The notes: generated by a model not told the origin, from the sequence alone. Shown: positions 3,935 to 63,464, numbered from the stretch's first letter. The stretch is 64,000 bases of DNA from Mobula birostris (GCF_030028105.1 NC_092395.1:37230424-37294423); one strand, 5' to 3'. Translations and numbers: made by a program.

Positions 3935-4222
3935 TGTAGCGGTGTGCTACACACAGCGCTAGAATAACCACACGGAGCCGGTGAGTTAGAGTTGCGATGA
4001 AAGAGATTTATTCAAACTTCGCGGCCTGCTTTAAAGCCTTCCCGTTCCCGCCCTCCCTGGGACGGGACTGCTGTGGGGAATGCATATTCCCAGACCCTTT
4101 CCGCGCGCGGGACTTTCCCCCTGCTGGTAAAGATGGCCTGGCGCCATTTTTGGGGCCGGCCCTCTGCCTGCGTGCGCTGTTTTGTGAGCCGGTTCGTGTG
4201 TGCTAGAAAGTGGGTCGCCACA
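3935..4222 (-). repeat. Gypsy 3' LTR (288 bp)
   Basis: Direct repeat of 7976-8261; preceded on the minus strand by a polypurine tract GGGCGGGAGGGGGG (+ strand 4226-4239); AATAAA on the minus strand. Confidence 0.95.
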
Positions 4223-4297
4223 TAACCCCCCTCCCGCCCAAGAACCGGCGATACCTCCCCCAATGTCCACAGTCTGGATCGGCCTCTGTTTGGGAGG

Positions 4298-6760
4298 TCA
4301 GCCCCTGCGCCGCAGTGCCTGAGCCTGGACCGGCTGCGCCAAGTCCACATGGGCCGGTTCGAGTTGGTCCACCGTGAAAACCTCCTCTCTCCCCCCAATG
4401 TCCAGCACGGACGTGGACCCGTTGTTCCTGATCACCTTAAACGGCCCCTCGGAGGGCCGCTGCAGTGGTGCCCGGTGTCCGCCCCGCCGTACAAAAAGAA
4501 ACTTACAGTTCTGCAGGTCTTTGGGTATGCAGGTCGGGCTCTGTCCGTGCTGTGAAGTGGGGATGGGGGCCAGGTTACCGAGCCTCTCACGTAGTCTGTC
4601 CAGGACTGCTGTGGGTTCTTCCTCTTGCCCCCTTGGGGCTGGTATGAACTCTCCTGGGACTACCAGGGGTGCGCTGTACACCAACTCGGCCGGCGAGGTG
4701 TGCAGATCCCCCTTGGGCACCGTGCGGATTCCGAGCAGGACCCAGGGAAGCTCGTCCACCCAGTTAGGCCCCTCCAGGCGGGCCATGAGAGCCGATTTCA
4801 GGTGACGGTGGAAACGCTCCACTAGTCCGTTCGACTGTGGGTGGTAGGCAGTTGTATGGTGTAGCTGAGATCCTAAAAGGTTGGCCATAGCTGACCACAG
4901 GCTGGAGGTGAACTGGGCGCCCCTGTCGGAGGTAATGTGGGCTGGTACCCCGAAGCGGGCTACCCAGGTTGCGATCAGTGCTCAGGCGCAGGATTCGGAG
5001 GTGGTGTCGGTGAGCGGGACTGCCTCTGGCCATCTGGTGAACCAGTCTACGATAGTTAGGAGGTACCGCGCTCCTCATGACACTAGCAGGGGCCCCACGA
5101 TATCCACATGGATGTGGTCGAACCTCTGGGGGGTGGGTTTGAACTGCTGCGGCGGAGCCTTGGCGTGCCGCTGCACCTTGGCCGTTTGGCACTGCATGCA
5201 CGTTTTGGCCCATTCACTGACCTGCTTACGCAGCCCATGCCACACGAACCTGTTGGCGACCAGCCGGACAGTTGTCCTGAAGGAGGGGTGCACTAAGTTG
5301 TGAATGGACTCGAAAACCCGCCGGCACCAGGCTGCTGGGACGACGGGGCGGGGTTGGCCGGTAGCTACGTCACATAGTGGGGTCCTCTCACCTGGGCCTA
5401 CGGGGAGGTCTTGGAGCTGCAAACCGGAGACCACAGTCCTGTAACTGGGGATCTCAGCGTCTGCCTGCTGTGCCTCTGCCAGCGCTTCATAGTCCACCCC
5501 CTGGGACAAGGCCTGTATGGTAGGTCTGGATAGTGCGTCCGCCACGACGTTGTCCTTTCCAGAGACATGCCGGATGTCCGTCGTGTACTCGGAGATGTAG
5601 GACAGATGTCGCTGCTGGCAGGACGACCAGGGGTCGGACACCTTCATGAACGCAAAGGTAAGCGGTTTGTGGTCTGTGAACGCGGTGAAGGGCCTACCTT
5701 CTAAGAAGTATCTGAAATGCCGGATTGCCAGGTATAGTGCCAATAGCTCCCGGTCGAAAGCACTGTATTTGAGTTTAGGTGGTCGTAGATGTTTGCTAAA
5801 GAACGCCAGGGGCTGCCAGCGACCCTCAATGAATTGTTCCAGCACTCCACCGACTGCTGTGTTGGATGTGTCCACCGTGAGGGCAGTAGGAACGTCCGTT
5901 CTGGGGTGCACTAGCACCGCGGCGTTTGCCAAGGCTTCTTTGGTTTTAACAAAAGCCGTTGCGGCCTCTTCATCCCAGGTACTGTCCTTGCCCTTACCCG
6001 ACATTAGAGTGAACAGGAGTCGCATGGTTCGGGCTGCTGAGGGGAGGAAACGGTGGTAGAAATTCACCATACCCATGAATTCCTGCAGGCCTTTGATTGT
6101 GTTGGGTCGGGGGAAGTTGCGGACCGTGTCTACCTTGGCGGGCAGCGGGGTTGCCCCGTCTTTAGTAATCCTGTGGCCCAGGAAGTCGATGGTGTCGAGT
6201 CCGAACTGGCATTTGGCTGGGTTGATTGTAAGGCCGAATTCGCTCAGGCGGGAGTAGAGCTGGCGGAGGTGGGACAGATGCTCCTGCCGACTACTGCTGG
6301 CTGTGAGGATGTCGTCCAAATAGATGAATGCAAAGTCCAGGTCACATCCCACCGCGTCCATTAGCCGCTGGAAAGTCTGTGCGGCATTCTTTAGACCAAA
6401 AGGCATTCGGAGGAATTCGAAAAGTCCGAACGGTGTGATAAGTGCTGTTTTGGGGATGTCGTCCGGATGTACAGGGATTTGATGGTATCCCCGGACGAGG
6501 TCTACCTTGGAAAAGATCCTTGCGCCTTGTAGGCTTGCTGCGAAGTCTTGAATGTGCGGTACAGGGTAGCGGTCTGGCGTTGTAGCCTCGTTCAGTCTGC
6601 GGTAGTCACCGCATGGTCTCCAGCCCCCCATTGCCTTGGGCACCATGTGAAGGGGGGGAGGCCCATGGGCTGTCGGACTATCATATGATCCCCAATTCCT
6701 CCACCTTCTTGAACTCCTCCTTCGCCAGTCGGAGTTTGTCCGGGGGAAGCCTTCAAGCAC
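4298..6760 (-). pseudogene. Gypsy pol (RT, RNase H, integrase), broken by frameshifts
   Basis: ORF 5075-6760 ([42 protein letters not shown]) and ORF 4298-4888 (integrase core, GPF/GPY-like end) are separated by a frameshifted stretch. Confidence 0.9.
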
Positions 6761-6963
6761 GGCCGTGGAGGGGTGGTCCCTGGGTTGGGATGTGGTGCTG
6801 TACTCCGTGTCTGGGCATGGCTGCCGTGAACTGTGGTGTCAGTACTGATGGGAAATCCGCCAGGACCCTGTGAATTCGTCGTCGGACAGCGTGATGGAGT
6901 CCAGGTGTGAGGCTGGCAACTGTCCTTCACCCAGGGAGAACGTTTGAAAAGTCTTGGGGTGGA

Positions 6964-7935
6964 CTAATCGCTTCCCTTGCAGGTCGACCAGCAGGCTGTG
7001 GGCTCGTAGAAAATCCGCCCCCAGGAGTGGTTGGCCACGGCGGCCAGTGTGAAGTCCCACGTGAACCGGCTGGAGCTGAACTGTAGCTGCACCGTGCGGG
7101 TGCCGTAGGTTCGTATTGTGCTGCCATTTGCGGCCCTCAGGGTGGGTCCCGGTTCTCTGTTGCGGGTATCATAACTCGTTGGAGGTAAGACGCTGATCTC
7201 CGCTCTGGTGTCGACCAAAAAGCAGCGTCCCGACTGCTTGTCCCAGACATACAGGAGGCTGCCCTGGCGTTTCCCGGGAATTTGCAGGGTGGTCTGCAGC
7301 GGCGGGCCTCTGTGCCCCACCGCTGGTAGTAGAAGCTCCTCACTCCCGTCGCCGGGTTTTGTAGGCTCTGCTGCCGGGCCTGGTCTGGTCTGTCGTTGGG
7401 CACGCGGCTTGGTGATCTGTGCGACGGACGCCCCTCTCTCTTTCCTGGCATTCCACAGCACACCTGCTCGGGCCACCACCTCCCGGGGGTCGCTGAAATC
7501 TGCGTCGGACAGCAGCAGGCATATGTCCTCGGGCAGTTGCTCTAGGAACGCCTGCTCAAACATGAGGCAGGGTTTGTGTCCTTCAGCCAGGGCCAGCATC
7601 TCGTTCATTAATGCTGACGGCGGCCTGTCTCCCAAACCATCCAGGAGCATTAAGCGGCGTGCTCGCTTGTGCCGTGAGAGACCGGAAGTCCTTATGAGCA
7701 GGGCTTTGAATGCTGTGTATTTGCCGTCCTCCGGGGGCGACTGTATAAACTCCTCAACTTGTGCAGCTGTCTCCTGGTCAAGTGAGCTCAGCACATAGTA
7801 GTAGCGAGTGGACTCCGAGGTTATCTGCCGAATGTGGAATTGAGCTTCTGCTTGTTCGAACCATAAATGGGGTCGCAGCGTCCAGAAGCTTGACAGTTTT
7901 AACAAAACTGCATGAACAGATGCAGCGTCGGTCAT
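6964..7935 (-). pseudogene. Gypsy gag and protease, decayed
   Basis: MTDAASVHAVLLKLSSFW...; zinc-knuckle remnant YYQRWGTEARRCRPPC in another frame; protease catalytic DTG mutated to DTR. Confidence 0.85.
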
Positions 7936-7959
7936 CTCTGGTCCAAATATCGTTTGGGC

Positions 7960-7973
7960 CGTCGGGATCACCA
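7960..7973 (-). other. Primer-binding site complementary to the tRNA-Trp 3' end
   Basis: Minus strand TGGTGATCCCGACG just inside the 5' LTR; one mismatch to the known Trp PBS TGGTGACCCCGACG. Confidence 0.8.
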
Positions 7974-7975
7974 AA

Positions 7976-8261
7976 TGTAGTGGTGTGCTACACACAGCGC
8001 TAGAATAACCACACAGAGTCGGTGAGTTAGAGTTGCGATGAAAGAGATTTATTCAAACTTCACGGCCTGCTTTAAAGCCTTCCCGTTCCCACCCTCCCTG
8101 GGGCGGGACTGCTGTGGGGAATGCATATTCCCAGACCCTTTCCGCGCGCGGGATTCTCCCCCTGCTGGTGAAGATGGTCTGGCGCCCTTTTTGGGGCCGG
8201 CCCTCTGCCTGCGCGCGCTGTTGTGAGCCGGTTCGTGGGTGCCAGAAAGTGGGTCGCCACA
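7976..8261 (-). repeat. Gypsy 5' LTR (286 bp)
   Basis: About 14 substitutions and one 2-nt indel relative to the 3' LTR (counted by eye), many at CpG. Confidence 0.95.
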
Positions 8262-38399: not shown

Positions 38400-38581
38400 T
38401 GATTGGAATGGTCCTTGAGCAACTCAAGTGTGATTAGAATCCTACCTCTAATTGTTACAACCTTGGCTGATAAAAGTGATTGGTTGATTTTGTTAGTTTC
38501 TATTGGTTTGATTTAAAACAGGTGCTGCTATTTTGTTGTTATATAAGTGTATTGCATATGCTACTGATAGACTTGTAGAGG
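38400..38581 (+). promoter_or_regulatory. Putative promoter and short non-coding exon 1 of the divergent perilipin gene
   Basis: Inverted CCAAT (ATTGG) at 38402, 38479 and 38502; E-box CAGGTG at 38519; TATATAAG at 38540; donor AGG|GTAAGG after 38581, ~200 nt before the acceptor at 38783. Same layout as the neighbouring PLIN3-like gene. Confidence 0.55.
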
Positions 38582-38798
38582 GTAAGGAATAGATTAATGG
38601 TAGTTATGTGTGGTCACAATTGCATAGTGATTTTGTTTAATTTGTATTGTAGACTGCACATAGTTCAATATTCAATTTTGTTTGAGTTAATGGGTAAAGT
38701 TCTGGTGTCCATTGTGTAGACTTTCTTTATTGGGAATGATTAATTATCTTCAGTTTAAGTTAATTTTCTGATCTGTTGAATAGGGTATTTAATTCAAC

Positions 38799-38855
38799 AT
38801 GGCATCAATTAACCAAGCATCTGATACTACAGAGGCTCCAGATAGGAACCAAAAG
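38799..38855 (+). CDS. Divergent perilipin coding exon 1 (MASINQASDTTEAPDRNQK)
   Basis: Acceptor ttgaatag at 38783, ATG in aacATGG context, donor AAG|gtaact, phase 0; parallels exon 59228-59299. Confidence 0.8.
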
Positions 38856-41800
38856 GTAACTTGAAACTTATACTTAAGTAATTTCTTTAGTGTTTTCTCT
38901 AAATCTTGACAAATTGGATGTGCCTCTTAAAAATCTCTAACTGTAGATTTCTTCTAATCAATATCCCATAGTACTTAATGGTGTCTATGTTCCTTTTTGC
39001 TGAAGAAAATTAACTCCACATTAGCATTTGGCTAGGGGAAAAGAGTAATTTGCTGAAGTGGAAGTGTGATTGTGTATAAAAGCAAAAATTTGTAAATATT
39101 ACTATGCATATTTAGTTTTTAATACTCATAATTGAAAATGTTTTTTCATTACCAACAGTATAAATCCTGACTACTGTTCCAATCTAGCCTTTTGGTAGGA
39201 ACTGTGGGATGAGGTATTGAAATGAAGTGGCTGAAGTTAACATATTGTCATGGGTACTGAGTGGAAAAATTTGTTTTGTATACAGTCCATACAAATCATC
39301 TTGTTACAATGTGTATTGAGGTAGTAAAAGACTTCAAAAACTACAGAATAGTGTTAAGAGTACCACTGACAAAAATTCCCTAAACACTAGGGGATGTTGT
39401 CTAGTAGTTGACCAACAGTTCTTTCACTCAACATTGCATAATACTGTCTTGAATGTTTGGTATATACAAATTGACTGCTGTTAATTTATTCCTTGGATAA
39501 CAAGTTACACACAAGTGCTAGTTGGTGTATCTTTCAAGGTTCCTACTTGTGGAAGTTCTGTGTTGCCTTCACAGGACTATTTTAAGAATAGAATACTTCA
39601 GACTTTTTGTATGATGACTTGTAATAATGGTGATGTAAGATTTTGTGCTTTGGCAATAGTTTAATCCTGAATTTAGGGTTTTTATCTGAATAGGCTTCTA
39701 GGTGCCCTAGTCTATCTCCCATATGTAAGCCATGGTAGTTAGTACTGTATGTTAATTTAATGAATATCCTGTAGTTTAGATGAATGGTAGAATGCTCTAG
39801 GATTAAAACAGTTGGGGGGGGGGGGGTTGTTGGTGTAGAAGGATGCTTGATTTTTTTTCTTGTAAACATAATGGCTAAAGGGCCTGATTCTATGTTGTTA
39901 GCCTCTAATTACTTCATGTGACTTTAAATTTAAGCATGAAGAATTGGCTTTAATCTAGGAAGTATATTTTGAATCCTGTAACTGATTATGTATGCTTGAG
40001 TACTGTTCTTCCTTCCTTGTCCTCTAAAAGGAGCCTTGCTTCTGATGCACCTCAAAAACATGCTAAACTTGAGTAATTTTGAGATTTGTGTGAGTGGCTA
40101 CAAATCACTGATCAGTAATTAAAAACCTGGCTCTTAATTTCAGGATGTGCCTGTGGCAGCTACTCCCCCTTGTGAAAATGTTACTTGTGCCCAGGCACTG
40201 GCTGAGCAGACCAGTGCTAAGGAGAACATTCCTGAGAAAAGTATTTGCAATGTGATGGAGCAAGGACAGGAAACACCTTCATCAATGGTTAACAAAAGTG
40301 CTGAGTCAAACAAGGAGAAGCCAGGGCCTCAATGTAAGCTGAATAGCTGAAGTTTTGTACTGGAATCTCAATATTAACTGAACTGTTTTAAAGGGTGATG
40401 AAGAAATGTAGTGCAGCACAGTGGAAGTATTGATAAGTACCCAAACCAATGAACTGTCCCTGTTTAAATTTCTAATCTGCTTCATCTGCAATCTTTGTCT
40501 AATGCTATGTACTTACTATAATGGCTTTACTCTAATGGCATTCCATCCTGACATATAACCATGCATTTCCACCTTTACTGTCTACACAGGATATACCAGA
40601 GTGAAAATCTATGGATTGAAGGGTGTAAACTAGTGAAGGCAGTGAATTTGTAACTGGAACAGCCTTATCTTTCCAACCATTGTGCATACTAAAGCTCTTC
40701 CTTTCTTCTTCCCCCTGCCCCCCACCAAAAAAACAACTTGGACCATATTTGATCCTATCCTTGCCACACTTTAAGACTTTTTCTTGTATTTGTACTACCC
40801 ATTTGGAACTTTGGATTTGAAACAATTCAAATATTACAAAATGAAGATTCTCTGCAGTGACTTAGATTCACTGACCCTCAATGAACAGACGAGGTCTTAA
40901 TTTTGTTTTGCATTTAGTTGCAGAAACTAAAGATGAAGGGGTGGACAAAGCCCCTATACTTCATCCTACTGAACAGGTTGGTGGGACTTTAATGGATTCT
41001 TCCTTGAACCGAGATGATTCTCTAGGGGGCAATGCTCCAGATCCTTCTCTGCCCAATTCTACTTTCTAGCCATGAGTGTTGGTGTATTGCAGGTAGTACA
41101 GCTGTCCTCATTCCAGACATTTGTCAGGAGTCTACACTCCTGTGTTCCCCAGATGCTCTGGATTCTCCCTACATCCTAAACATGTGCAGATGTATTAATC
41201 AGCTGCTTTAACTTGGTGTAGGAAGAAGTGGTATTTATGGACACAAGGATTGATTATATGAAGCAAATTAAATATCAAATTGCTCAAAGATAAGAATTTT
41301 CTGGTCCAAAAGCTAAATGGATATCAATGAAACAAACTATAGGCTTCTGATGCTAATAATATCTCTAGCCCTGAAATTGCACTGCTATCTGACAGTTGGG
41401 TATGCTTCCTACCAACACAAAGCAGTGAGGAATCTAGATCAGTAGTATTAAAACTGTTAATATAACCAATTATTTTTAAAGCTTGGCTAATCTAGTCACT
41501 GTGCTGAATTGGCATACCGAGTAACAAATTGTCAAACAGTAGCCTGCGCACACCTTGATTTACCCTGAATCCTAGGGCCATAGTTGTAAAACTTGACTGA
41601 AAACTAACCTGGTTAATTAAAATCTTCCCACCTTTTACTGTCTGATCATAAACTTGTTTGCCAAACTGTGCAAGAATTGCTATTGGCTGAATCGATGCAG
41701 TTGATCTCCCTGTCCCATGTGTTCTAGGACCAGGGTCATGGAGGTAAGCTGGTGTCCTGGATGACTGATGTGAAAGACAAACCAGCTGGCATTGTGAAAA

Positions 41801-44800
41801 TAGCAGCAACCTTTGTTCAAGGCAACCTGGAGCAAATTAAAACTGTAGCTGAAGGTTCCAATACTGCGGTCCAGCCAGTGGCTACCAGCTCAGAGATTAA
41901 AATGCTAACAGCTGCAGATCTGTGCCTTCCAATGACCAAAATAAAACCAGGTAATCAGATATGCTTCTCTAAATTTTTTTCTAAATCTTTCTCACAATCA
42001 CTTTTGCACTTGAGCTAATGTGCTTGTACTGTAATATTGGCCTCTAAATTCCATCCTGCTACACTCTAGGAGGAAGGAGAATCCATTATGTAGTTAAAAA
42101 TGTGTGATGCAGCATCTCAAAATTCCCACATGGTAGGAAGTTGAGTGCTGAATCACCAGTGGGAGAACCCTCCCTTCCCCCCCCCCCCCACTAGAAACAT
42201 TACCTCTTTCAGTTCTCCAAAATGGCAAAGGTTGAAGTTGATCAAGGATGTTAACCTCTGTATTCTGTTAACTTAGAGGGCTGACAAACTGCTTCAGCCT
42301 TTCTGCTTGCTCTGGAAACATAGCATTGAAAAGCTTTTCTGCACTCTAAAACTGACATCCTGCAGCTACCCATTGTATCAAGTAAGGATGAGATACTGCA
42401 GATGCTGGAAATCCGAGAGCAATACACAAAGTGCTGGAGGAGCTCAGCAAGTCGGGCAGCATCCCTGGATGGGAATAAAGTTGACCTTTCAGGCTCAGAC
42501 CCTGCATCAGGAAGGGTCAACAGTTTATTCCTATCCATAGATGCTGCCTGACCTGCTGAGCTGCTCAAGCACATTGTACATCTCTAGTAGGGAGTACTAC
42601 ACAAGATGTAAGAGCAGAATTGGAGCATTTGGCCCATTGAGTCTGCTCTGCCATTTCATGATTGGAGCTGAGAGGAAAATAGATTAATCTCCCAATGACT
42701 TGGCCTCCATGCTGATTGTGGCAATGAATTCTAATTGTCCTATGGACATTGTCATGAGGACCATAGAGAAAGTACAAAGGCCTTAGACCCTGAGTCCATA
42801 AATACCTGTCTGCTTGAGTATTGCTCAACCTTCAGTCTTGTCCTGGACTGAGATCTCATGTAACCTGCAAGGAATGGATACTTGGCTTACAGCAGCTGAG
42901 GTCAGCTTGCTTCCTGTCTGCTGCTGTTACACTTTTCAGTTTCTTGCTACATTTGGGGATGTGCATGTTGCTTTGTTCTGAGACTTGTAGTCAAGTGTCC
43001 TATGGCAATGTGCCATAAAGAATGCATATCATTAAAGCCTTTCATGTACTCCCTGTATCTCCTTGAGACTCCCCTAATGACTTCCCAGGAATGTCTTCTA
43101 GAAAGCCTAGCATTAACAGTGGAATACAGCACAAATGCACCTGGCAGTAACATTTTCTACTAGCCTGAGTTCTTGCTCATTCAGGAGCATTATACCTAGA
43201 AGCTATGTGTAGCTCCCTTCAAAAGCAATTTCAGTTGCAGCAGTGGTGCCTTCCAGAAATTCATTACATTATATCTTGGCAGGACACAAACAGTCTGGAT
43301 GGCATCTCTTAAAGAGCAACTACCTCCCAGTGCCAGAGACTAGGTTCATTCTGACCTGGATTGCTGTCTGGTGGTGAAACCTATGCTGTGGTTACCTAAA
43401 AGTAAATGACCACACCTTAATTCATTATTGTAACAATGTATATAAGCATGTTGATCCCAGGTTAGTGACATGTTGTTTATTTTGTATTTGGGGCACTAAA
43501 ATAAGGAATCTTGTATTGGCTAACAAATTATCTTTGCAGGATCAGGCTTGGTTCTTCCTTATTGTTTCCAGAGTTCTAATTACATACAAAATCCTACATA
43601 TCCTATAGTTAAGGTGTTATCAATCCTGAATTCCATTGCTTCTAGCTGACCTCTATTCATTTTTCATTGGTTCTGTGCCCAAGGCTACAAGTAGCATCTC
43701 ACTGCTCTTATCCCTAGTAAAATATGCCTATCTTTTCCTTTTCACTGAATCGGGCCATTTCGGAAGTGTTAATAGTGATGTTTCAGAATTTGTTGAAAAC
43801 TACTCTGGAGGACTGAAAATCACAAATTCCCCTGAAATCGAAGGTAGGAAGCAAAAGGCAGGAAATAATGGGCCAGTTAGCCCATGCCCATTATTAAGGA
43901 TGAGATCTGGGTACTTGGAGGCACACAACTTTAAAATAGGCTAAAATCAGCATTGTTCCCTTGGGCAAAGATCTTGCCTGACAAATCCATGGGAATTTAA
44001 GTAACAGGCTGGATGGTCAATGGATGTTCACTTGGATTTTTCCGAAGGCCTTTTAAAAGGTGCTGCACAAGGCTACCAAACAAGATAGAAGCCTTTAGGA
44101 TTACAGGAATGGTAGTAGCATGGCTAAATAGCTGACTAGCAGATGAGGAGTAAGAATAAAAGGGCCCTTGTCTGACAGTGTCTTGTGTGGAATAGAGGTC
44201 AGTGTGTCTGCTGCTTTTCATGTATCATTGAAATTGGCTTTGTAGCCAAAATTGCAGATTATACAAAGATGGGTGGAGGGGCAGGCAGTATTAACCATGG
44301 AGTCTGCAGAAGGACTTGGGCAGGTTAGAAGTGGCATATGGAATAAGAGGTGTTTGGTTATGCACTGTGGTGGAAGAAAAAGACTATTCTCTAAATAGGG
44401 GAGAATTCGGGAATCAAAATGTACAGGGACTTGAGCCCTAGAGTAAAATTCCCTGAAGGTTAACTTGCAGGTTGCATTTGCCTGCCTTATTCCAATGATG
44501 TTAACATCCATTTTTGTGAGAACTGGAATATAAGGGCAAGGATGTAATGCTGAGACTTCAGGTGGTATTGCAGACAGTTTGGGGCCCCAGATCTAAGGAT
44601 GGATATGCTGGAGAGGGTCCAGAGAAGATCTAAGAACCCCCAGGATCAATGTACAAGGAGCATTTGATAGCTTGGGGGGGGGGGGGGGGGTTCTAATGTA
44701 GTTTAGAAGGATATGGGTAGTGGATTTGGAGAGGATGTTTTCAATAGTGAGTTTAGGCCAAAGGGCATATCCTTTACAACAGATGAGGAATTCCTTTAGC

Positions 44801-47058
44801 CAGAGTATGGTAAATCTGTGGAGTTCATTGCTACAGACTGCCATGGAGGCCAAGTCACTGGATACTTCTACAGCAGAGGTTGAGTTCTTGTTTGGCTATA
44901 GGGTGAAGGCAGGAGACTCTGCCATGATATGGCAGAGCAGATTTGATGGGCTGCATGGCCTAATTCTGCTCGTGTCTTGTGGTCTAAACCAGTCTAAAGT
45001 CAGACATGCAAACACGAGGAAATCTGCAGATGCTGGAAATTCAAGCAACATACAAAATGCTGCTGGAACGCAGCAGGCCAGGAAGCATCTATAGGAAGAG
45101 GTACAGTCGACATTTTGGGCTGAGACCCTTCATCAGGACAGACATGGCTCAGTTATCTTTCTTCATGGACATGGTATTTGTAAGCTTATTCTACTTTAAA
45201 GTACCCACAAATAACTTGGTTGGAAATTACTGATTCTAGCATATTTTTATAGGGCCTTTTATGTTCACTTTAAAATACTTCAATCCAGCAAGTATTTAGA
45301 AATTTGCACCACAAATGATCACAAGAGCAATCTCTCAAAACAATAGTCTCCACTTCCACCACATGGCATAAACAAAGACATTTGTTTTGTCTACTTGTCC
45401 ACTGTCCATGTTCTAGTTAGCTTATCTTGCGAATTTTTAATTTCTTCAGGCCAATTGTGTAATTTGCATATCTCCAACTGGATTTCTCTGGGTACTTTGG
45501 TTTCATGTGATACAAGTTATCTACTATACATTGCCCTTATTAAGGGAATGGTAGAATGTATGAGCACTACTTGGGAAGATAAAGGTAAAGAGTTTGATAG
45601 CTCAAATTTTGTAGGATGAGGGGCCTATTTCCCTGCTGTATTCCTGACTAGTGGGAAAGTGCTTCTAAACAGTTAATTCTGAAACTTGACTTTACAGCTA
45701 AAGTGCCAGTTCCCATTGGAGGGTCTGTAATGGGACAAGAGCCGAGTTTCTATGTGCATTCCGGATATTTGACATCAAAGCCTCACAATGATGGACCTCG
45801 GTATTCTGTGGCTAAGATGCAACAAGACACACAGGATGGTCAAGAGATTCTTTCCTTCTTGAATAAGCTTCTGGATCTGGTAAGGAAACAATTCCATTAT
45901 ACTTGTAAGCTTTTGCAACTTACAAATGTTACACTTGTGCTGCACTGAAGTTACTTGCACCATATTTTTAATGGGGGAAAAAGCCAACTTAGTTTGTTCA
46001 CCTTGAGCCAAGTAAATCTAATTCTAACCACCTCATCTTCAAAAGCAAACCAAATGCTACCAATGTATGGCTACTTCAAATTAATAACTTGGTTTTGGAG
46101 CTAAGCCACTCTATTTATTTTAGATCAATGTAGGAAAGAGGGGAACTGAATCAACACGCCTTGAAGTTGATGAGCATTTGAATCAGGTCCTGCTTGACTG
46201 GAGAGAGCACCAATCAAAGAAACAAGAGGAAGAGTTGCTATTGGAAAAACCTGAAGTAAGAAATTGATCTCTTGGCACTTGTAACCAAGTGTTAAATTAA
46301 GCCACTTAATATGCTGCACACAGTGGTGCTAATTTATCTCTCTAGAATGGCCTACTACCTTTAAAGGTGCATACAATTACATGGTCTCCTTCCTCTCTGT
46401 TTCTGTAATCTTGGCAACAGAAGTTAAACTATTTTTGAAAGGCCTAATTTGACAATATTCTTGCATAGCACTGGTTTTTTTTTATAAAAAAAAAAATTAA
46501 CATTTGCCTACCTGATGAAACTAAATTTTTCTCGTGTGCATTAGGTGTTTAGGAGTGGTGTATATGAGCCAAGGATGAAATGGGTGAATCAGGGTAAAGG
46601 TGAAAAATGCTTGCATGCCTGAAGCCAATTTCCAAAGGAGCAAATCAAAATTGTCTCAGAACAATGTGAACAGAGTGGGTTAACATTTCCCCTATATATT
46701 TCAGCAGGCTGAATCTCGATCACTGGCCATGACTCATAAACTTTCCAACCAACTACAAGCCATCTGTCAAAACTTGGCTTCAAGTGTCCATGGATTGCCT
46801 CAGCACATTGAAGGACAAGTACAGCACTTCTGCAAATGGACAGCAGAGATCTCCAGCACCCTGTCCTTGGCCACCTCTTTTCAGGACCTGTCTGCACAAT
46901 TCCTGGCACAGACCAGAGAGAAACTGATGAAGATTGGTGATGGAATGGATCAAGTGATGGACCATGTGCTTAATGATGCAGAGGTTGACTGGTTGATGGG
47001 GCCCATTAGTCCACACCTAAATGAAGGTTGGGAACCCAGGAATCCCACAACTAAATGA
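38799..47058 (+). CDS. Divergent perilipin-family protein (PLIN3/PLIN2-related), 7 coding exons, 398 aa; join(38799-38855,40144-40333,40918-40976,41728-41950,45698-45879,46124-46255,46705-47058)
   Basis: Exons sum to 1197 nt with no internal stop; all introns GT-AG with phases 0,1,0,1,0,0; motifs KEN.P..K..C.V.EQG, GVDK..PIL.PTE, LPMT, PSFYV, ESRSLAM, SFQDLS, WLMGP follow perilipin order. Confidence 0.9.
40144..40333 (+). CDS. Divergent perilipin coding exon 2 (degenerate PAT domain)
   Basis: tttcag|GAT...CAA T|gtaagc; 190 nt vs 196 nt for the paralog exon; aligns to it through KEN.P, K..C.V.EQG and K..PQ. Confidence 0.88.
40918..40976 (+). CDS. Divergent perilipin coding exon 3 (FAETKDEGVDKAPILHPTEQ)
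   Basis: catttag| ... CAG|gttggt; corresponds to the perilipin GLDKLEE.LPIL.QPTE segment. Confidence 0.85.
41728..41950 (+). CDS. Divergent perilipin coding exon 4 (shortened amphipathic repeat region)
   Basis: ttctag|GAC...CCA G|gtaatc; ends ADLCLPMT like perilipin D..LP.T; in frame with ORF 41752. Confidence 0.85.
42390..42580. repeat. Inverted pair of Penelope-like terminal repeats in intron
   Basis: 42427-42490 is the approximate reverse complement of 42512-42577; a hammerhead-like core lies between them on the minus strand. Confidence 0.7.
43780..44995 (+). mobile_element. Old, heavily decayed CR1 in intron of the divergent perilipin; boundaries approximate
   Basis: Remnants ggatttttccgaaggcctttt, MRNSFSQSMVNLWSSL.Q.AMEAKSL, CR1-type 3' tail tcttgtggtct. 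Confidence 0.75.
45008..45139 (-). repeat. Penelope-like terminal repeat with decayed minimal hammerhead
   Basis: Minus strand gtc-CTGATGA-agggtctcagccc-aAAA-tGTC-gactg at 45104-45139. Confidence 0.7.
45698..45879 (+). CDS. Divergent perilipin coding exon 5
   Basis: tttacag|CT...CTG|gtaagg; QEPSFYVHSGYLTSK resembles perilipin PSYYVRLGSLS.K. Confidence 0.9.
46124..46255 (+). CDS. Divergent perilipin coding exon 6 (INVGKRG...LLDW...EKPE)
   Basis: tattttag|ATC...GAA|gtaaga; 132 nt, open, phase 0; conserved Trp and terminal KPE. Confidence 0.85.
46705..47058 (+). CDS. Divergent perilipin terminal exon (four-helix-bundle C-terminus)
   Basis: QAESRSLAMTHKLSNQLQAIC..SSVHGLP..SFQDLS..MDQVMDHV..WLMGPISP; NAGNAG acceptor at 46702-46707; stop TGA. 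Confidence 0.95.
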   Translation, partial: QAESRSLAMTHKLSNQLQAICQNLASSVHGLPQHIEGQVQHFCKWTAEISSTLSLATSFQDLSAQFLAQTREKLMKIGDGMDQVMDHVLNDAEVDWLMGPISPHLNEGWEPRNPTTK

Positions 47059-47258: not shown

Positions 47259-47264
47259 AATAAA
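47259..47264 (+). terminator. Polyadenylation signal of the divergent perilipin gene
   Basis: First AATAAA ~200 nt after the stop codon, followed by GT/T-rich sequence. Confidence 0.65.
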
Positions 47265-49939
47265 AATGCATACAAATAGAATTAGTGTGAGGTTTTAATT
47301 TGACACTAACCAGTTGTATATGTATACCAGGTGCTTGCTTGAAGTTTGAACTTTTCAATGTTGTTCCCTGTCAAGACCTTTCCATGAGTTGGCCTTCACT
47401 GTTCACTATCAATTTCTGATTTGCTCCTACATCCTTGAATTCAAAGTATCCAACAGGCCCATGCTGTCAGTGGTGTACTAGAAGTATTTACTATCTGGGG
47501 ATTGATTTATTATCACATGAAGTGAGATGGTCAGAAGCTGTTTTGCAAGCAATTTCAAAGTGAGTTACATAAAATAGTTAGACAAGATAACTGGATCTTG
47601 TACTCAGTATGTGAGATTGAACTTCTGTAGTGTTCAAGAGTTTAATAGTGGGAATAGAAGCTGTTATGGGCCTGTTTTCAAGCTTCTGTGCCTGAAGGAA
47701 AGAGACTGGAGAATGCCTGGGGTGAGAGGATTTTAATGCTATAATCACTGACCAGCTAATCCAAGAAGTCAAGGCAATTCTAGTCCTCTATTGCACCTCA
47801 ATTTGTCTAGCCTGTTTTTGGTCCCTGATACTGCAGATACATCTTCAAATTTGAATGTAGTTGCTAAAGTAATTGAGAACAAATGCTGCATGTGATTTAT
47901 GGTGTAGTAGGAGAATATATGCCCTAGAGTGAGGCAAGATCTTTTGAGAAGCAAATGATTTTGATTCGGTATGATTGATGACAAATGTCAAACAGTTAAC
48001 ATCAAATTTAGAATTGGCTTCAGTTGAATGTTTTTGGTACTGTCTGCATTTGGCTTAAATCTTGTCATTGGACTCCATTCAGCCCAGCCAGCTGCTCATT
48101 CCATGCACCATTCAACATCCAATTTGATTTGCACTTGCTTGGCATAATAGCACAATATTATGATTTCTGTATCTTTGACAGTTGTCATCCTTTAAACTTT
48201 GTTCTCTAGTAAGAGCTAACTAATGGGAATAAGTGTCAACTCTAAATCTTGTTACTTCTATAGACCTTTCAACAGAGACTTCACTTCCAACATCTCAATA
48301 CTGAAGGCCCACATTTTTTAATTTCATGGTAAAATTCATGTCTGCATTTGGATAAATGCATCTCTAAAGTCTTCCATAATTGTGTGCAATTATCCAGTTG
48401 AAGCCTCTCCACTAATTTAAGGTTGGAGCATGTTTTATTTGCAATTTGATTAAGTTTTTAGCCGTATTGTCAATTTACCTAAAGGGACATCTTGGCTTTT
48501 AATCCATCATGTTAGGGTAGCTCAAAGTGGCTTCATGTCTCCCAATGAGCCACAACTCCAAGCCTCAGATTATTTTATCATCCCTTCTAAACAAGCAAAC
48601 CCCACTACTTAGTGTTTCCTTACCACAAATTAAAAGCTTGCTTCCAACACAAGCCCAGGCCACTTGGAACACTTGAGTAACAAATCAGAACAATTTGGGA
48701 GCTTTGTATGTTGGATTGCTTGGTGATCAGTAACATAGGAAATGCCAGCCTTTGCTATCATCGAGGCAGTTTCCTGTCCACACTGCCTTTTAACATTATA
48801 ATTGAGTTTTAACATTAAGATTTAAATCCTTGTTTAATTTCTCACTAACCAATGTGTTCCCAAATTGTTTTCCAATTTTCCCTGATGCTGCTGCATAGAG
48901 GGTCTGTTGTGTGTATCCTGATTATCTAAACTATAAAATCATCAGAACATGAAATTCTGCAAATGTGGAAATTCTAAAGTTGTAATTTTAACTAATTCTC
49001 CTGTCTAATTCTTCATGAGAATCAATTCCTCTTTCTCCCCCTCCCCCTCCCCCTCCCCCCCCACATGGGAAGTCTTCCATCTGGGCTGCATATTTAGATA
49101 TTTAGTAGTTCTCAATGTTTTTGCATTTTAAATTTAAATATAATTGTCATTCAATCATTCATAAATACAACCAAACAAGACAGTGTTACTACAGGGCCAG
49201 GGTCAAGATGCTAAAACAAGAACACAAACACAGAATAAAAGACCCAATGCACATGCACTGCCCCCCTCCCCGATAAAAGTCAACAACTGCAGAATATCCA
49301 GGCCCCCTCATCCCACTGACACCTGCTATGTGATAACTGTCTCAGAGGCCCAGTCCTCAATATACAGGCACATATAGAATATTATTTTATATAAAAAGTT
49401 TTTAATTATCCAGAACCCCTCAGTCCAAATGAAATAACTGACTATACCTGCACTGCACTGCCCCAGTAGAGCATGAAGGCTTGCCCATCATGAATTTTCT
49501 TCCACAACTATCCCATTATTTTCCTGTAGCACAAAATAGCCACAATGTTTTCTACATGTCTTCTATCTCTAACTTTCTCATTAAATGGGGTAGACATATA
49601 CACTTCACTGTAACATCTTTTAGGTTCAATTTAGTGTGGACTTTTATTTCTCAACATTTTATTTAATATTTCTTTGCCTCCCACTTCAACTTTTTGAAAT
49701 CCTCTCATTATCTTGTTAATTTTTCTGATGTCAATTAAATCTCAATCCTGGCATTTGCTATGCTATTAGTTCAGTTTTATTTCAACTTGTTTCCTTGGTC
49801 ATTCAGAGTGCATTAGTTGTGCTTTCTGTGCCTTTTATCTCTTCCCTGAATGTCATCTAAATTGCATTCACTATTTGTTAGATCACCAAAATTAGTTTTT
49901 GCATTTTATCCTCAACATATTCAATAATTAAAGGGAGAA

Positions 49940-59227: not shown

Positions 59228-59299
59228 ATGGCCTCAGAAGCGGATAGAAACGTTGAACTTGCCAACAATGGCGAGCACCAGGACGACGGGGAACAGCAG
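59228..59299 (+). CDS. PLIN3: Perilipin-3-like, coding exon 1 (MASEADRNVELANNGEHQDDGEQQ)
   Basis: gctATGG start, CAG|gt phase 0, joins in frame to the PAT exon. A ~24-aa leader ending QQ fits PLIN3 better than the ~10-aa PLIN2 leader; orthology not proven. Confidence 0.8.
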
Positions 59300-61636: not shown

Positions 61637-63161
61637 TAGTACTGTGCAAAAGTCTTGCCACTCTTATCTAAAGCAAAATGTGTATTAAAAATGTTATTTC
61701 TCTGCTGCATTAGTATGTCAGTGTAAAAGAGCAAATTTTAGATTTCCCAACATTCAGTTTCCAAAATATTAAATGTTAGTGACTTTGTTTTATATTTCAT
61801 TAAAGAAAGTAATATGTTAAGTAATGGACCATTCTTCAAATTAAAAACTTGATTACTTTGTAGGTATCTAGCCCAGTGCATGGCTAAACAGATAATAGGA
61901 TGCTAATGATCAGTGACATAATGAGTGAATGAATTAAACTGAAACAAGGTGTATAGAAGGAATCAAGCTGGGTGACGGGCAGCCAAACTAAAAGGTGAGG
62001 GTGTGGCAGATGTGACAGTTTAACCTACAAAGTATCAATTATTACACTGTGGCAAAAGTGAGCATAGCAGCAAGACACAAGGTGGTCATGTGCATCAGCA
62101 AGGTCTCTTCCAAGCAGAAGTTTCATGGCAGAGGAGTTTCAAGATACCACGTCCAAGCTTTTCTGAAGAAGCACGGAGACCTGAAATGCAGTGGTCAGCC
62201 ACAGAAACTGAATGTAGCAGATGAGAGGTACATCAAACAGACTCCCTTCTAAATCGGAAGAAGTCCAGCATTGCTATCAGTTCTGAACTCATAGAAACTG
62301 CAGAACCCAAGTACACCCCACTACAGTCTGGAGAAGTCTTGTCAGAAGTGGCCTTCATGGAAGAGTTGCCACCAAAAAGTCATTCCTGCGAAGTGGAAAC
62401 AAAGCCAAGAGACTCGCCTATGCTCAAAAACACAATGATTGGGGTGCTGAACAATGGCAGCAAGTGCTGTGGACTGACAAGTCAAAATTTGACATTTTTG
62501 GCTCAAACAGCAGGCAGTTTGTGCACAGAAGAGCTGGAGATCGCTACATGGGTAAGCACCTGCAGCAAACAGTGAAGCACAGCAGAGGCTCCCTGCAAGT
62601 GCGTAGCTGCATTTCTGCAAATTGAGTTGGTAATCTGATCAGAATTTATGGAATCCTCAATGCTGAGAAGTACAAGCAGATTCTCAACAATCACGCAATA
62701 CCATCAAGGAGGTTTCTGATCAGAATGAACTTCATTTTGCAGCAACACAATGACCCCAAGTACATGGCCAAGGTCATAAACTATCTTCAGTAAAAAGAAC
62801 AAGGAGTTCTGCAGCAGATGGTAAGACCGCGACAGAGCTCTGATCTCAACATCAACAAGGCTGTCTGCGATTTCCTGGAGAGAAAGAAGCAAGCCAAAGT
62901 ATGCAGAAGAACAGTGGCAAGTTCTCCCAGATGCTTGGAACAACCTACCAGTCAAGGTTTCTTATAAAACTGGATGACAGTGTATCTAAGAGAATTGATG
63001 CAGTTTTAAAGGCAAAGGGTACTCACACCAAATATTGATTTAGTGTTTTACTGGTTACTGCTCTTTATAGTAGTCTTTTGTTTTTGCAGATTTAGAAACT
63101 TATTGAAAGCATTTTTGTTACAGATGTTTTTACATGAGCCCAAGACTTTTGTCCAGTACTA
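61637..63161 (+). mobile_element. Full-length but decayed Tc1-family DNA transposon in PLIN3-like intron
   Basis: TIRs tagtactgtgcaaaagtcttg / caagacttttgtccagtacta; broken transposase ~62049-63040 with VLWTDKSKF, TVKH, ILQQHNDPK, SSDLN. Confidence 0.9.
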
Positions 63162-63268: not shown

Positions 63269-63464
63269 AATGTGGTGAACAGGGTCACTAACCTGCCGCT
63301 TGTGAGCTCTGCCTATGATATGGTGTCGGCTGCATACAACAACACCAAGGAGAACCATCCATATGTCAAGACGGTCTGTGACGTTGCTGAACAGGGAGTG
63401 AAGGCCATCTCTGCTGTGGCTGCCAGTGGTGCCAAGCCCATTATGAACAAGCTGGAACCACAAA
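63269..63464 (+). CDS. PLIN3: Perilipin-3-like, coding exon 2 (PAT domain); gene continues beyond the window
   Basis: tttcag|AAT...CAA A|gtaaga; [44 protein letters not shown]...PIMNKLEPQ is the canonical PAT signature. PLIN3 favoured, PLIN2 not excluded. Confidence 0.93.

Follow-up and report, generated by a model that had tools for sequence, protein, structure and literature searches.

A perilipin gene of manta rays and stingrays with an eroded PAT domain and a retained helix bundle

Is the upstream of two tandem perilipin genes in Mobula birostris a working gene, where did it come from, and what could a perilipin do whose N-terminal half has shed most of the family's conserved residues? 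The pair lies in a stretch of 64,000 nucleotides (GCF_030028105.1 NC_092395.1:37230424-37294423; hereafter the window, with positions counted from its first letter). An earlier note on this DNA had described a spliced 398-aa open reading frame with perilipin exon phases beside a canonical PLIN3-like gene, and had taken it for a remodelled copy of that neighbour. Its description of the gene was sound. Seven coding exons on the plus strand (38799-47058) encode 398 aa without stops, every intron is GT-AG, and the encoded protein matches the NCBI model XP_072100601.1 ('perilipin-3-like isoform X1 [Mobula birostris]') residue for residue; the peptides quoted in the note all occur where it placed them. 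The phases (0,1,0,1,0,0) are those of the 439-aa neighbour, a canonical gene of what we call clade A below, whose coding exons 1 and 2 (59228-59299 and 63269-63464, plus strand) fall in the window and whose end lies about 4.1 kb past it. All differences in coding-exon length between the two genes are multiples of 3, as the earlier claim of frame-preserving indels had it.

Exons 2, 4, 5, 6 and 7 resemble their counterparts in the neighbour as protein (z 6.2, 3.8, 13.1, 7.1 and 26.0 against shuffles); exons 1 and 3 rise above shuffles as DNA only (z 3.0 and 5.9; protein z 0.8 and 1.4). Exon 1 (38799-38855, aa 1-19) and exon 3 (40918-40976, aa 83-102), the latter holding the eroded end of the PAT region and 8 codons shorter than the neighbour's, were placed by exon comparison and spliced contigs. 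The eroded PAT domain itself occupies exon 2 (40144-40333, aa 20-82), placed by its homology to the neighbour's exon 2 and by spliced contigs. In exon 4 (41728-41950) the 11-mer region is shortened, a single amphipathic stretch persisting at aa 124-145 (manta), and the alpha part of the alpha/beta subdomain is eroded as well; exon 5 (45698-45879) carries an eroded strand of that subdomain and then bundle helix 1; exon 6 (46124-46255) bundle helix 2; and exon 7 (46705-47058) the remaining bundle helices, an altered WL-GP motif and the stop codon, all on the plus strand. Exon 7, delimited by contig joints, is still clearly perilipin, as the note had held, with 93 bits against PF03036 and the TIP47 fold. 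An alternative exon 7 acceptor at 46708 (397 aa) was set aside, as the contig joints give 46705; for other rays, the NCBI models include both types of acceptor. A further exon considered at 43540-43843 was also discarded, having in-frame stops and being skipped by all contig joints. Two NCBI isoform models (P0001 and P0005) leave out exon 6 and so drop a bundle helix. Such skipping also occurs in canonical shark gene models and in chicken PLIN2 and, going by these models, is not special to the ray gene.

At the 5' end, the sequence of 38540-38581 (+) contains a TATA-like box (38540-38546) and a probable short non-coding first exon, which would end at 38581 and be joined to 38784. A weak indication of this joint comes from one contig of sequencing run X5, in which 9 loose letters matching 38572-38580 precede 38783, and a contig of run X2 continues unspliced from 38680 instead of joining the putative exon. 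At the other end, the AATAAA at 47259-47264 (+) is a probable polyadenylation signal, and a contig of run X1 ends at 47270.

Transcription, which the earlier note had left to be checked, is supported by public sequencing runs. In six of the seven runs (four organisms, five studies), contigs skip introns at the predicted edges; that the runs are RNA is a guess, and the evidence for mRNA is these intron-exact joints. All six introns are bridged in X2 and in X4, five of six in X1, and the first three in X5, X6 and X7, for which the region covered was 38550-42050 only; contigs of run X3 contain the last exon alone, with no joint listed. Contig depth was about 2900 in X2 and 8.5 in X4, two runs from one organism and study (about 340-fold), and 10 in X6 versus 497 in X7. 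This spread hints at restriction to certain tissues, contig depth being a poor expression measure.

The neighbour proved to be the wrong yardstick for this gene. Its last exon, used as query, led to a 785-aa model from Scyliorhinus canicula whose second half is a separate perilipin without PAT exons; in this NCBI model (P0011), it seems, a canonical clade-A gene and a PAT-less gene downstream of it have been run together. Searches with that half and with the ray proteins (best 120 of 790 matches listed) defined what we call clade B. Among the matches listed, it includes eleven shark proteins of 412-427 aa with an intact PAT region (B1; ten are in the alignment) and seven shark models of about 323-338 aa from six species (B2), in which, as read from automatic gene models, exon 1 is joined directly to exon 4 and exons 2-3 are absent. 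The B2 species are Heptranchias, Heterodontus, Cetorhinus, Mustelus (twice) and two Scyliorhinus, with the S. canicula half counted among the seven. The chimaera clade-B protein, XP_007899323.1, has an intact PAT domain, and its accession is adjacent to that of the chimaera clade-A gene on the same scaffold. Annotation of three further rays includes intact orthologs of the gene: Mobula hypostoma, Hemitrygon akajei (85%) and Hypanus sabinus (84%). For skates and the electric ray, the matches listed included clade-A genes but no clade-B protein. In an exhaustive search (138 matches), no cluster at 50% identity stood on its own between the ray protein and those of shark clade B, allowing that relatives could sit inside these clusters.

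In four trees, each of 27-37 chosen proteins with PAT columns excluded and no PLIN6 sequence, the ray genes were nested in elasmobranch clade B (100, 100/99, 100/100 and 100/99) on a stem branch of 0.71-0.83 substitutions per site. Shark clade B and the chimaera protein are the direct relatives of the ray gene (100/99 and 99/94), and the tetrapod PLIN3, PLIN4-like and named PLIN5 proteins fall outside a single clade (99/99 and 100/99) that unites clades A and B of cartilaginous fishes. Derivation of the ray gene from the neighbouring batoid clade-A gene was rejected (AU p=2e-6), as was a union of clade B with a crocodile protein annotated as perilipin-5 and that protein's turtle relative (p=6e-6); a first tree, which included no clade B and left the ray genes on a long branch, is superseded. 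Judged by these trees, clade B is a second perilipin lineage, confined to cartilaginous fishes and situated at the PLIN3/4/5 locus, and the ray gene belongs to it. The idea of a remodelled copy of the adjacent gene is thereby discarded, and so is that of a lineage-new paralog, the duplication being common to chimaera and sharks. Within clade B, a grouping of the ray gene with B2 received 99 SH-aLRT when six of the seven B2 models were joined and 92/82 for exons 4-6 with six of six, two further trees gave no resolution, and neither constrained grouping was rejected (with B1, p=0.059; with B2, p=0.27). Paralogs from one shark species often fall together in the trees, a pattern suggestive of gene conversion.

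The surroundings of the pair suggest the PLIN4/5 site. On its contig (C30), a semaphorin domain (37.04 Mb, +) comes first, then the perilipin pair (+), then a LEDGF-type domain (37.365 Mb, -) and a PUB domain (37.498 Mb, +), with TRIF and SRA domains on the same contig 5.3 Mb away. We take this order to match the surroundings of human PLIN4-PLIN5 (semaphorin; HDGFL2/UBXN6-type genes). The window itself also contains what are presumably a GC-rich LTR-retrotransposon-like element (4200-8100, -), whose frames, resembling gag, protease, reverse transcriptase and integrase, are interrupted by frameshifts, a damaged piece of a Tc1/mariner-like transposase within the canonical gene's first coding intron (62100-63000, +) and, elsewhere, many LINE fragments. 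No third perilipin copy or remnant was found in 264 kb around the pair. Searches of the genome with PF03036 and coelacanth PLIN2 (best candidates scored) matched only this pair and one locus on contig C3, and found no PLIN2 gene. Where shark or ray proteins bearing the name perilipin-2-like were included in trees, they grouped within the PLIN3/4/5 clade, and PLIN2 may have been lost in cartilaginous fishes. The C3 locus (15959885-15966753, -) encodes a highly diverged perilipin with recognisable PAT exon, exon 3 and exon 4 and about 30% identity to all perilipins compared; it lies about 0.6 Mb from semaphorin genes and is PLIN1- or PLIN6-like. Sea turtles have perilipin-3-like copies of about 315 aa (P0232-P0244) that keep the PAT domain and miss the alpha part and part of the bundle, and the coelacanth has many near-identical perilipin copies on one contig. 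The PLIN3/4/5 locus thus tends to produce lineage-specific copies, which lowers the surprise of finding another. Before tetrapods it has been treated as one PLIN3/4/5 gene (excerpts of PMC5342826).

Measured against the family, the ray protein has eroded over far more than its PAT domain. The columns conserved across the family that all three tested ray orthologs still share number 9/37 in the PAT domain, 3/10 in the 11-mer region, 6/25 and 4/8 in the alpha/beta subdomain's N- and C-parts (10/33 overall), and 26/33 in the bundle, that is, 22/80 for the first three modules together versus 26/33 for the bundle (Fisher p=7e-7). The earlier claim of an eroded PAT domain and a kept helix bundle is borne out, and the erosion, which that note had described for the PAT domain, extends to the 11-mer region and the alpha/beta subdomain. 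Identity between rays and shark B1 is 30-36% in the PAT region and 55-57% in the bundle, as against 82% and 60% between B1 and clade A; by this comparison, the usual conservation gradient is inverted in the ray gene. Large hydrophobic residues make up 16-17% of the PAT region in ray proteins versus 28-38% in 10 intact controls, and a PAT profile gives ray proteins 4.5-20 bits versus a median of 161 over 274 proteins. Exon 2 of the ray gene has no Pfam match, and the neighbour's exon 2 scores 114 bits against PF03036. The whole ray protein nevertheless reaches 144.9 bits (cut-off 33), and the stingray orthologs 127 and 122.

We modelled the ray protein and a shark B1 control with AlphaFold, using the same 23 sequences for both. 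The ray model is coil over residues 1-208, where neither helix nor strand is predicted, and a confident bundle over 209-379 (predicted helices 209-242, 246-266, 283-308, 314-336 and 345-371), and it is devoid of beta strands throughout, whereas the control has helices across 15-195 and both beta strands. Because pLDDT in the control is <50 over 1-176 and 186-210, the discrimination comes from predicted secondary structure, not from confidence. The disordered N-terminus proposed earlier accords with this, as the N-terminal half is predicted to be non-helical. Foldseek matched the ray model best to TIP47 (1SZI, E 5.8e-7), the sole match under 0.001, and phmmer against TIP47 gave E 4.5e-34. By PF03036, exon frame, tree placement and four-helix bundle, the ray gene is a perilipin by descent; by the domain tests and the predicted structure, its product is not a canonical droplet-coat perilipin, the PAT domain being no longer intact and the alpha/beta subdomain lost.

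What such a protein might do can be approached through published dissections of perilipin modules, cited here from excerpts of the papers. Droplet binding has been assigned to the PAT domain (DAG sensing), the 11-mer helices, and the bundle cleft or alpha/beta base (PMC13753571; PMC13382019; PMC4807253). Deprived of its alpha/beta part, the human PLIN3 bundle keeps its fold, yet it no longer binds liposomes and its binding to droplets is mostly gone, and the preprint reporting this proposes protein-protein roles for the bundle, naming its function beyond droplets as an open question (bioRxiv 10.64898/2026.08.15.745046). Isolated PLIN2/3 bundle fragments are cytosolic in yeast (PMC4807253); against a bundle that stays off droplets, PLIN2/4/5 bundles bind PE-rich droplets (PMC13382019). 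Given the resemblance of the ray protein to the alpha/beta-deleted PLIN3 mutant, with the PAT domain lost besides, we tentatively favour, among several readings, an intact, spliced clade-B gene with decayed PAT, 11-mer and alpha/beta modules, whose product would be a mostly soluble four-helix-bundle protein acting via protein contacts, with weak droplet binding at most. The canonical neighbour would still coat droplets, and all that selection preserved would be the bundle, serving as a protein-contact module on a flexible, acidic arm. Its contacts could be, to give examples only, the canonical coat or lipase cofactors; arrival at droplets would be feeble or mediated by other proteins, and the protein would probably work in a limited range of tissues. 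We rank this reading first, followed by a weak exchangeable coat, a decaying duplicate and a role in uterine milk.

It is possible, if less probable, that the protein is still a droplet coat of low affinity, exchangeable, held by the residual amphipathic stretch of exon 4 and the bundle cleft, and deprived only of the DAG-sensing PAT step. The proline-free stretch at aa 124-145 persists (moment 0.41 in the two mantas and 0.29 in Hemitrygon), the cleft motif keeps its tryptophan, in a segment with 12/13 residues identical among rays, the WL-GP core is kept, and exon-4 hydrophobic moment does not separate rays from shark B1. Excerpts of two sources add that 11-mer regions alone suffice for targeting (PMC4807253) and that, in oleate-fed yeast, PLIN3 bundle mutants without alpha/beta parts are still at droplets (bioRxiv 10.64898/2026.08.15.745046). 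Against such a coat stand the losses of conserved columns in the 11-mer region and the N-part of the alpha/beta subdomain, the count of proline-free amphipathic 22-mers (0-8 in rays versus 16-45 in three controls), and exon 4 itself, which is among the fastest-changing exons (55-56/72 identical).

The rates of change bear both on the reading that we favour, in which selection kept the bundle, and on the unlikely case of a gene copy in slow decay, one that is still translated although dispensable and is turning into a pseudogene. Between manta and Hemitrygon, the ray protein differs by about 15% and the neighbour by 2.5% (p=5e-11). Exons 1, 2 and 4, compared with organism D, show 22.5 nonsynonymous to 7.5 synonymous listed variants (pN/pS 0.87-1.14), a near-neutral rate that speaks for loss of constraint, not for the neofunctionalisation once proposed. 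Exons 5-7, compared with organism B, show 4 to 5 (pN/pS 0.22-0.31; 9 variants), although exon 6 alone has 3 to 0. The counts cover the variants listed, 17 coding ones for X2 and, for X7, 30 of the roughly 48 that fall in exons 1-4, and the estimate of selection on exons 5-7 (p 0.03 to 0.08) loses significance under strong transition bias. Small counts and partial lists as they are, they fit a relaxed N-terminal spacer and a constrained bundle. The absence of skate and electric-ray clade-B proteins among the matches listed would suit decay as well. It is harder to square with the lack of any stop or frameshift in the four annotated ray species (4/4) despite the stem of 0.7-0.8 substitutions per site, with indels that are all in frame, with splicing of all introns, and with a bundle 88-95% identical among rays. 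A young pseudogene, the outcome that the earlier note had set against its own reading, is thus not what we find.

Co-option in stingrays and mantas for lipid secretion into uterine milk, in the manner of the PLIN2 C-terminal bundle in mammalian milk fat, strikes us as improbable. The eroded form was found, among the matches listed, only in myliobatiform rays, which nourish their embryos with lipid- and protein-rich histotroph (excerpts of PMC10127299); the PLIN2 bundle is credited with a role in milk lipid secretion (excerpts of the review PMC6232911); no PLIN2 was found in the genome; and the roughly 340-fold difference in depth between X2 and X4 could reflect a specialised tissue. Against this, such depth is a poor expression measure, other rays are thinly sampled, PLIN2 in milk secretion also has droplet anchors, and white sharks reportedly produce lipid histotroph too. 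A broader scenario is just as hard to credit, in which the spare perilipin was repeatedly made PAT-less in cartilaginous fishes, by exon loss in sharks and erosion in rays, and in stingrays and mantas left droplets entirely as a bundle-only factor, possibly for uterine-milk lipid, parallel to PLIN2 in lactation. Last, an ordinary PLIN5 or PLIN6 ortholog with normal function, for which the semaphorin and HDGFL2/UBXN6-type flanks, in the order and orientation of human PLIN5-PLIN4, might speak, is very improbable, since trees that join clade B to the named PLIN5 of marsupials and rodents were rejected (AU p=1.3e-6), clades A and B of cartilaginous fishes form their own clade, the protein is without the C-terminal extension shared by two named PLIN5 proteins, and PLIN6, represented by no sequence in the trees, is placed in another paralogon (Hsa1) than the PLIN4/5 site (excerpts of PMC5342826).

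The literature searched, with most subscription journals outside its coverage, held no description of the ray gene or of elasmobranch perilipin paralogs beyond automatic annotation, and in the sole family-history paper found (PMC5342826) the words 'shark' and 'cartilaginous' have 0 occurrences. The gene adds a cartilaginous-fish branch to the history of the family, and with its relatives it supplies a natural deletion series, from clade A and B1 (all modules) through the shark B2 models (no PAT) to the ray protein (bundle only), which would offer a direct test of the cooperative-domain model and a natural test of the role of the bundle alone. The nearest known systems each share part of its features. 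PLIN3/TIP47 (1SZI, PF03036) and the pre-tetrapod PLIN3/4/5 gene have the same locus, seven-exon frame and four-helix bundle, but in the ray gene, which stems from a duplication restricted to cartilaginous fishes, the PAT domain, 11-mer helices and alpha/beta subdomain are eroded. Shark B2 likewise has no PAT domain; its models drop the PAT exons and keep the alpha/beta subdomain (87-92% identical to B1), whereas in the ray gene these exons persist as a decayed spacer and the subdomain is gone. The clade-B entries of sharks and chimaera all come from automatic annotation. PLIN6 of ray-finned fishes is likewise a paralog that took on a new use within a restricted tissue, but, according to excerpts of PMC5342826, it keeps the PAT domain, diverges elsewhere and arose by genome duplication at another locus. 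Mammalian PLIN4, in the accounts excerpted from PMC13753571 and bioRxiv 10.64898/2026.08.15.745046, is devoid of a PAT domain, and its bundle forms no stable alpha/beta subdomain; it compensates with a hugely expanded amphipathic repeat, whereas the repeat of the ray protein is shortened and eroded (exon 4 measures 74 aa, versus 79 in B1 and 88 in the neighbour), and the two proteins arose independently. The gene is accordingly a new form within the known perilipin family, partly prefigured by PLIN4, and not the undescribed system that had been proposed. PLIN4 has already lost the PAT domain and the alpha/beta part, but the expanded repeats by which PLIN4 compensates are missing in the ray protein.
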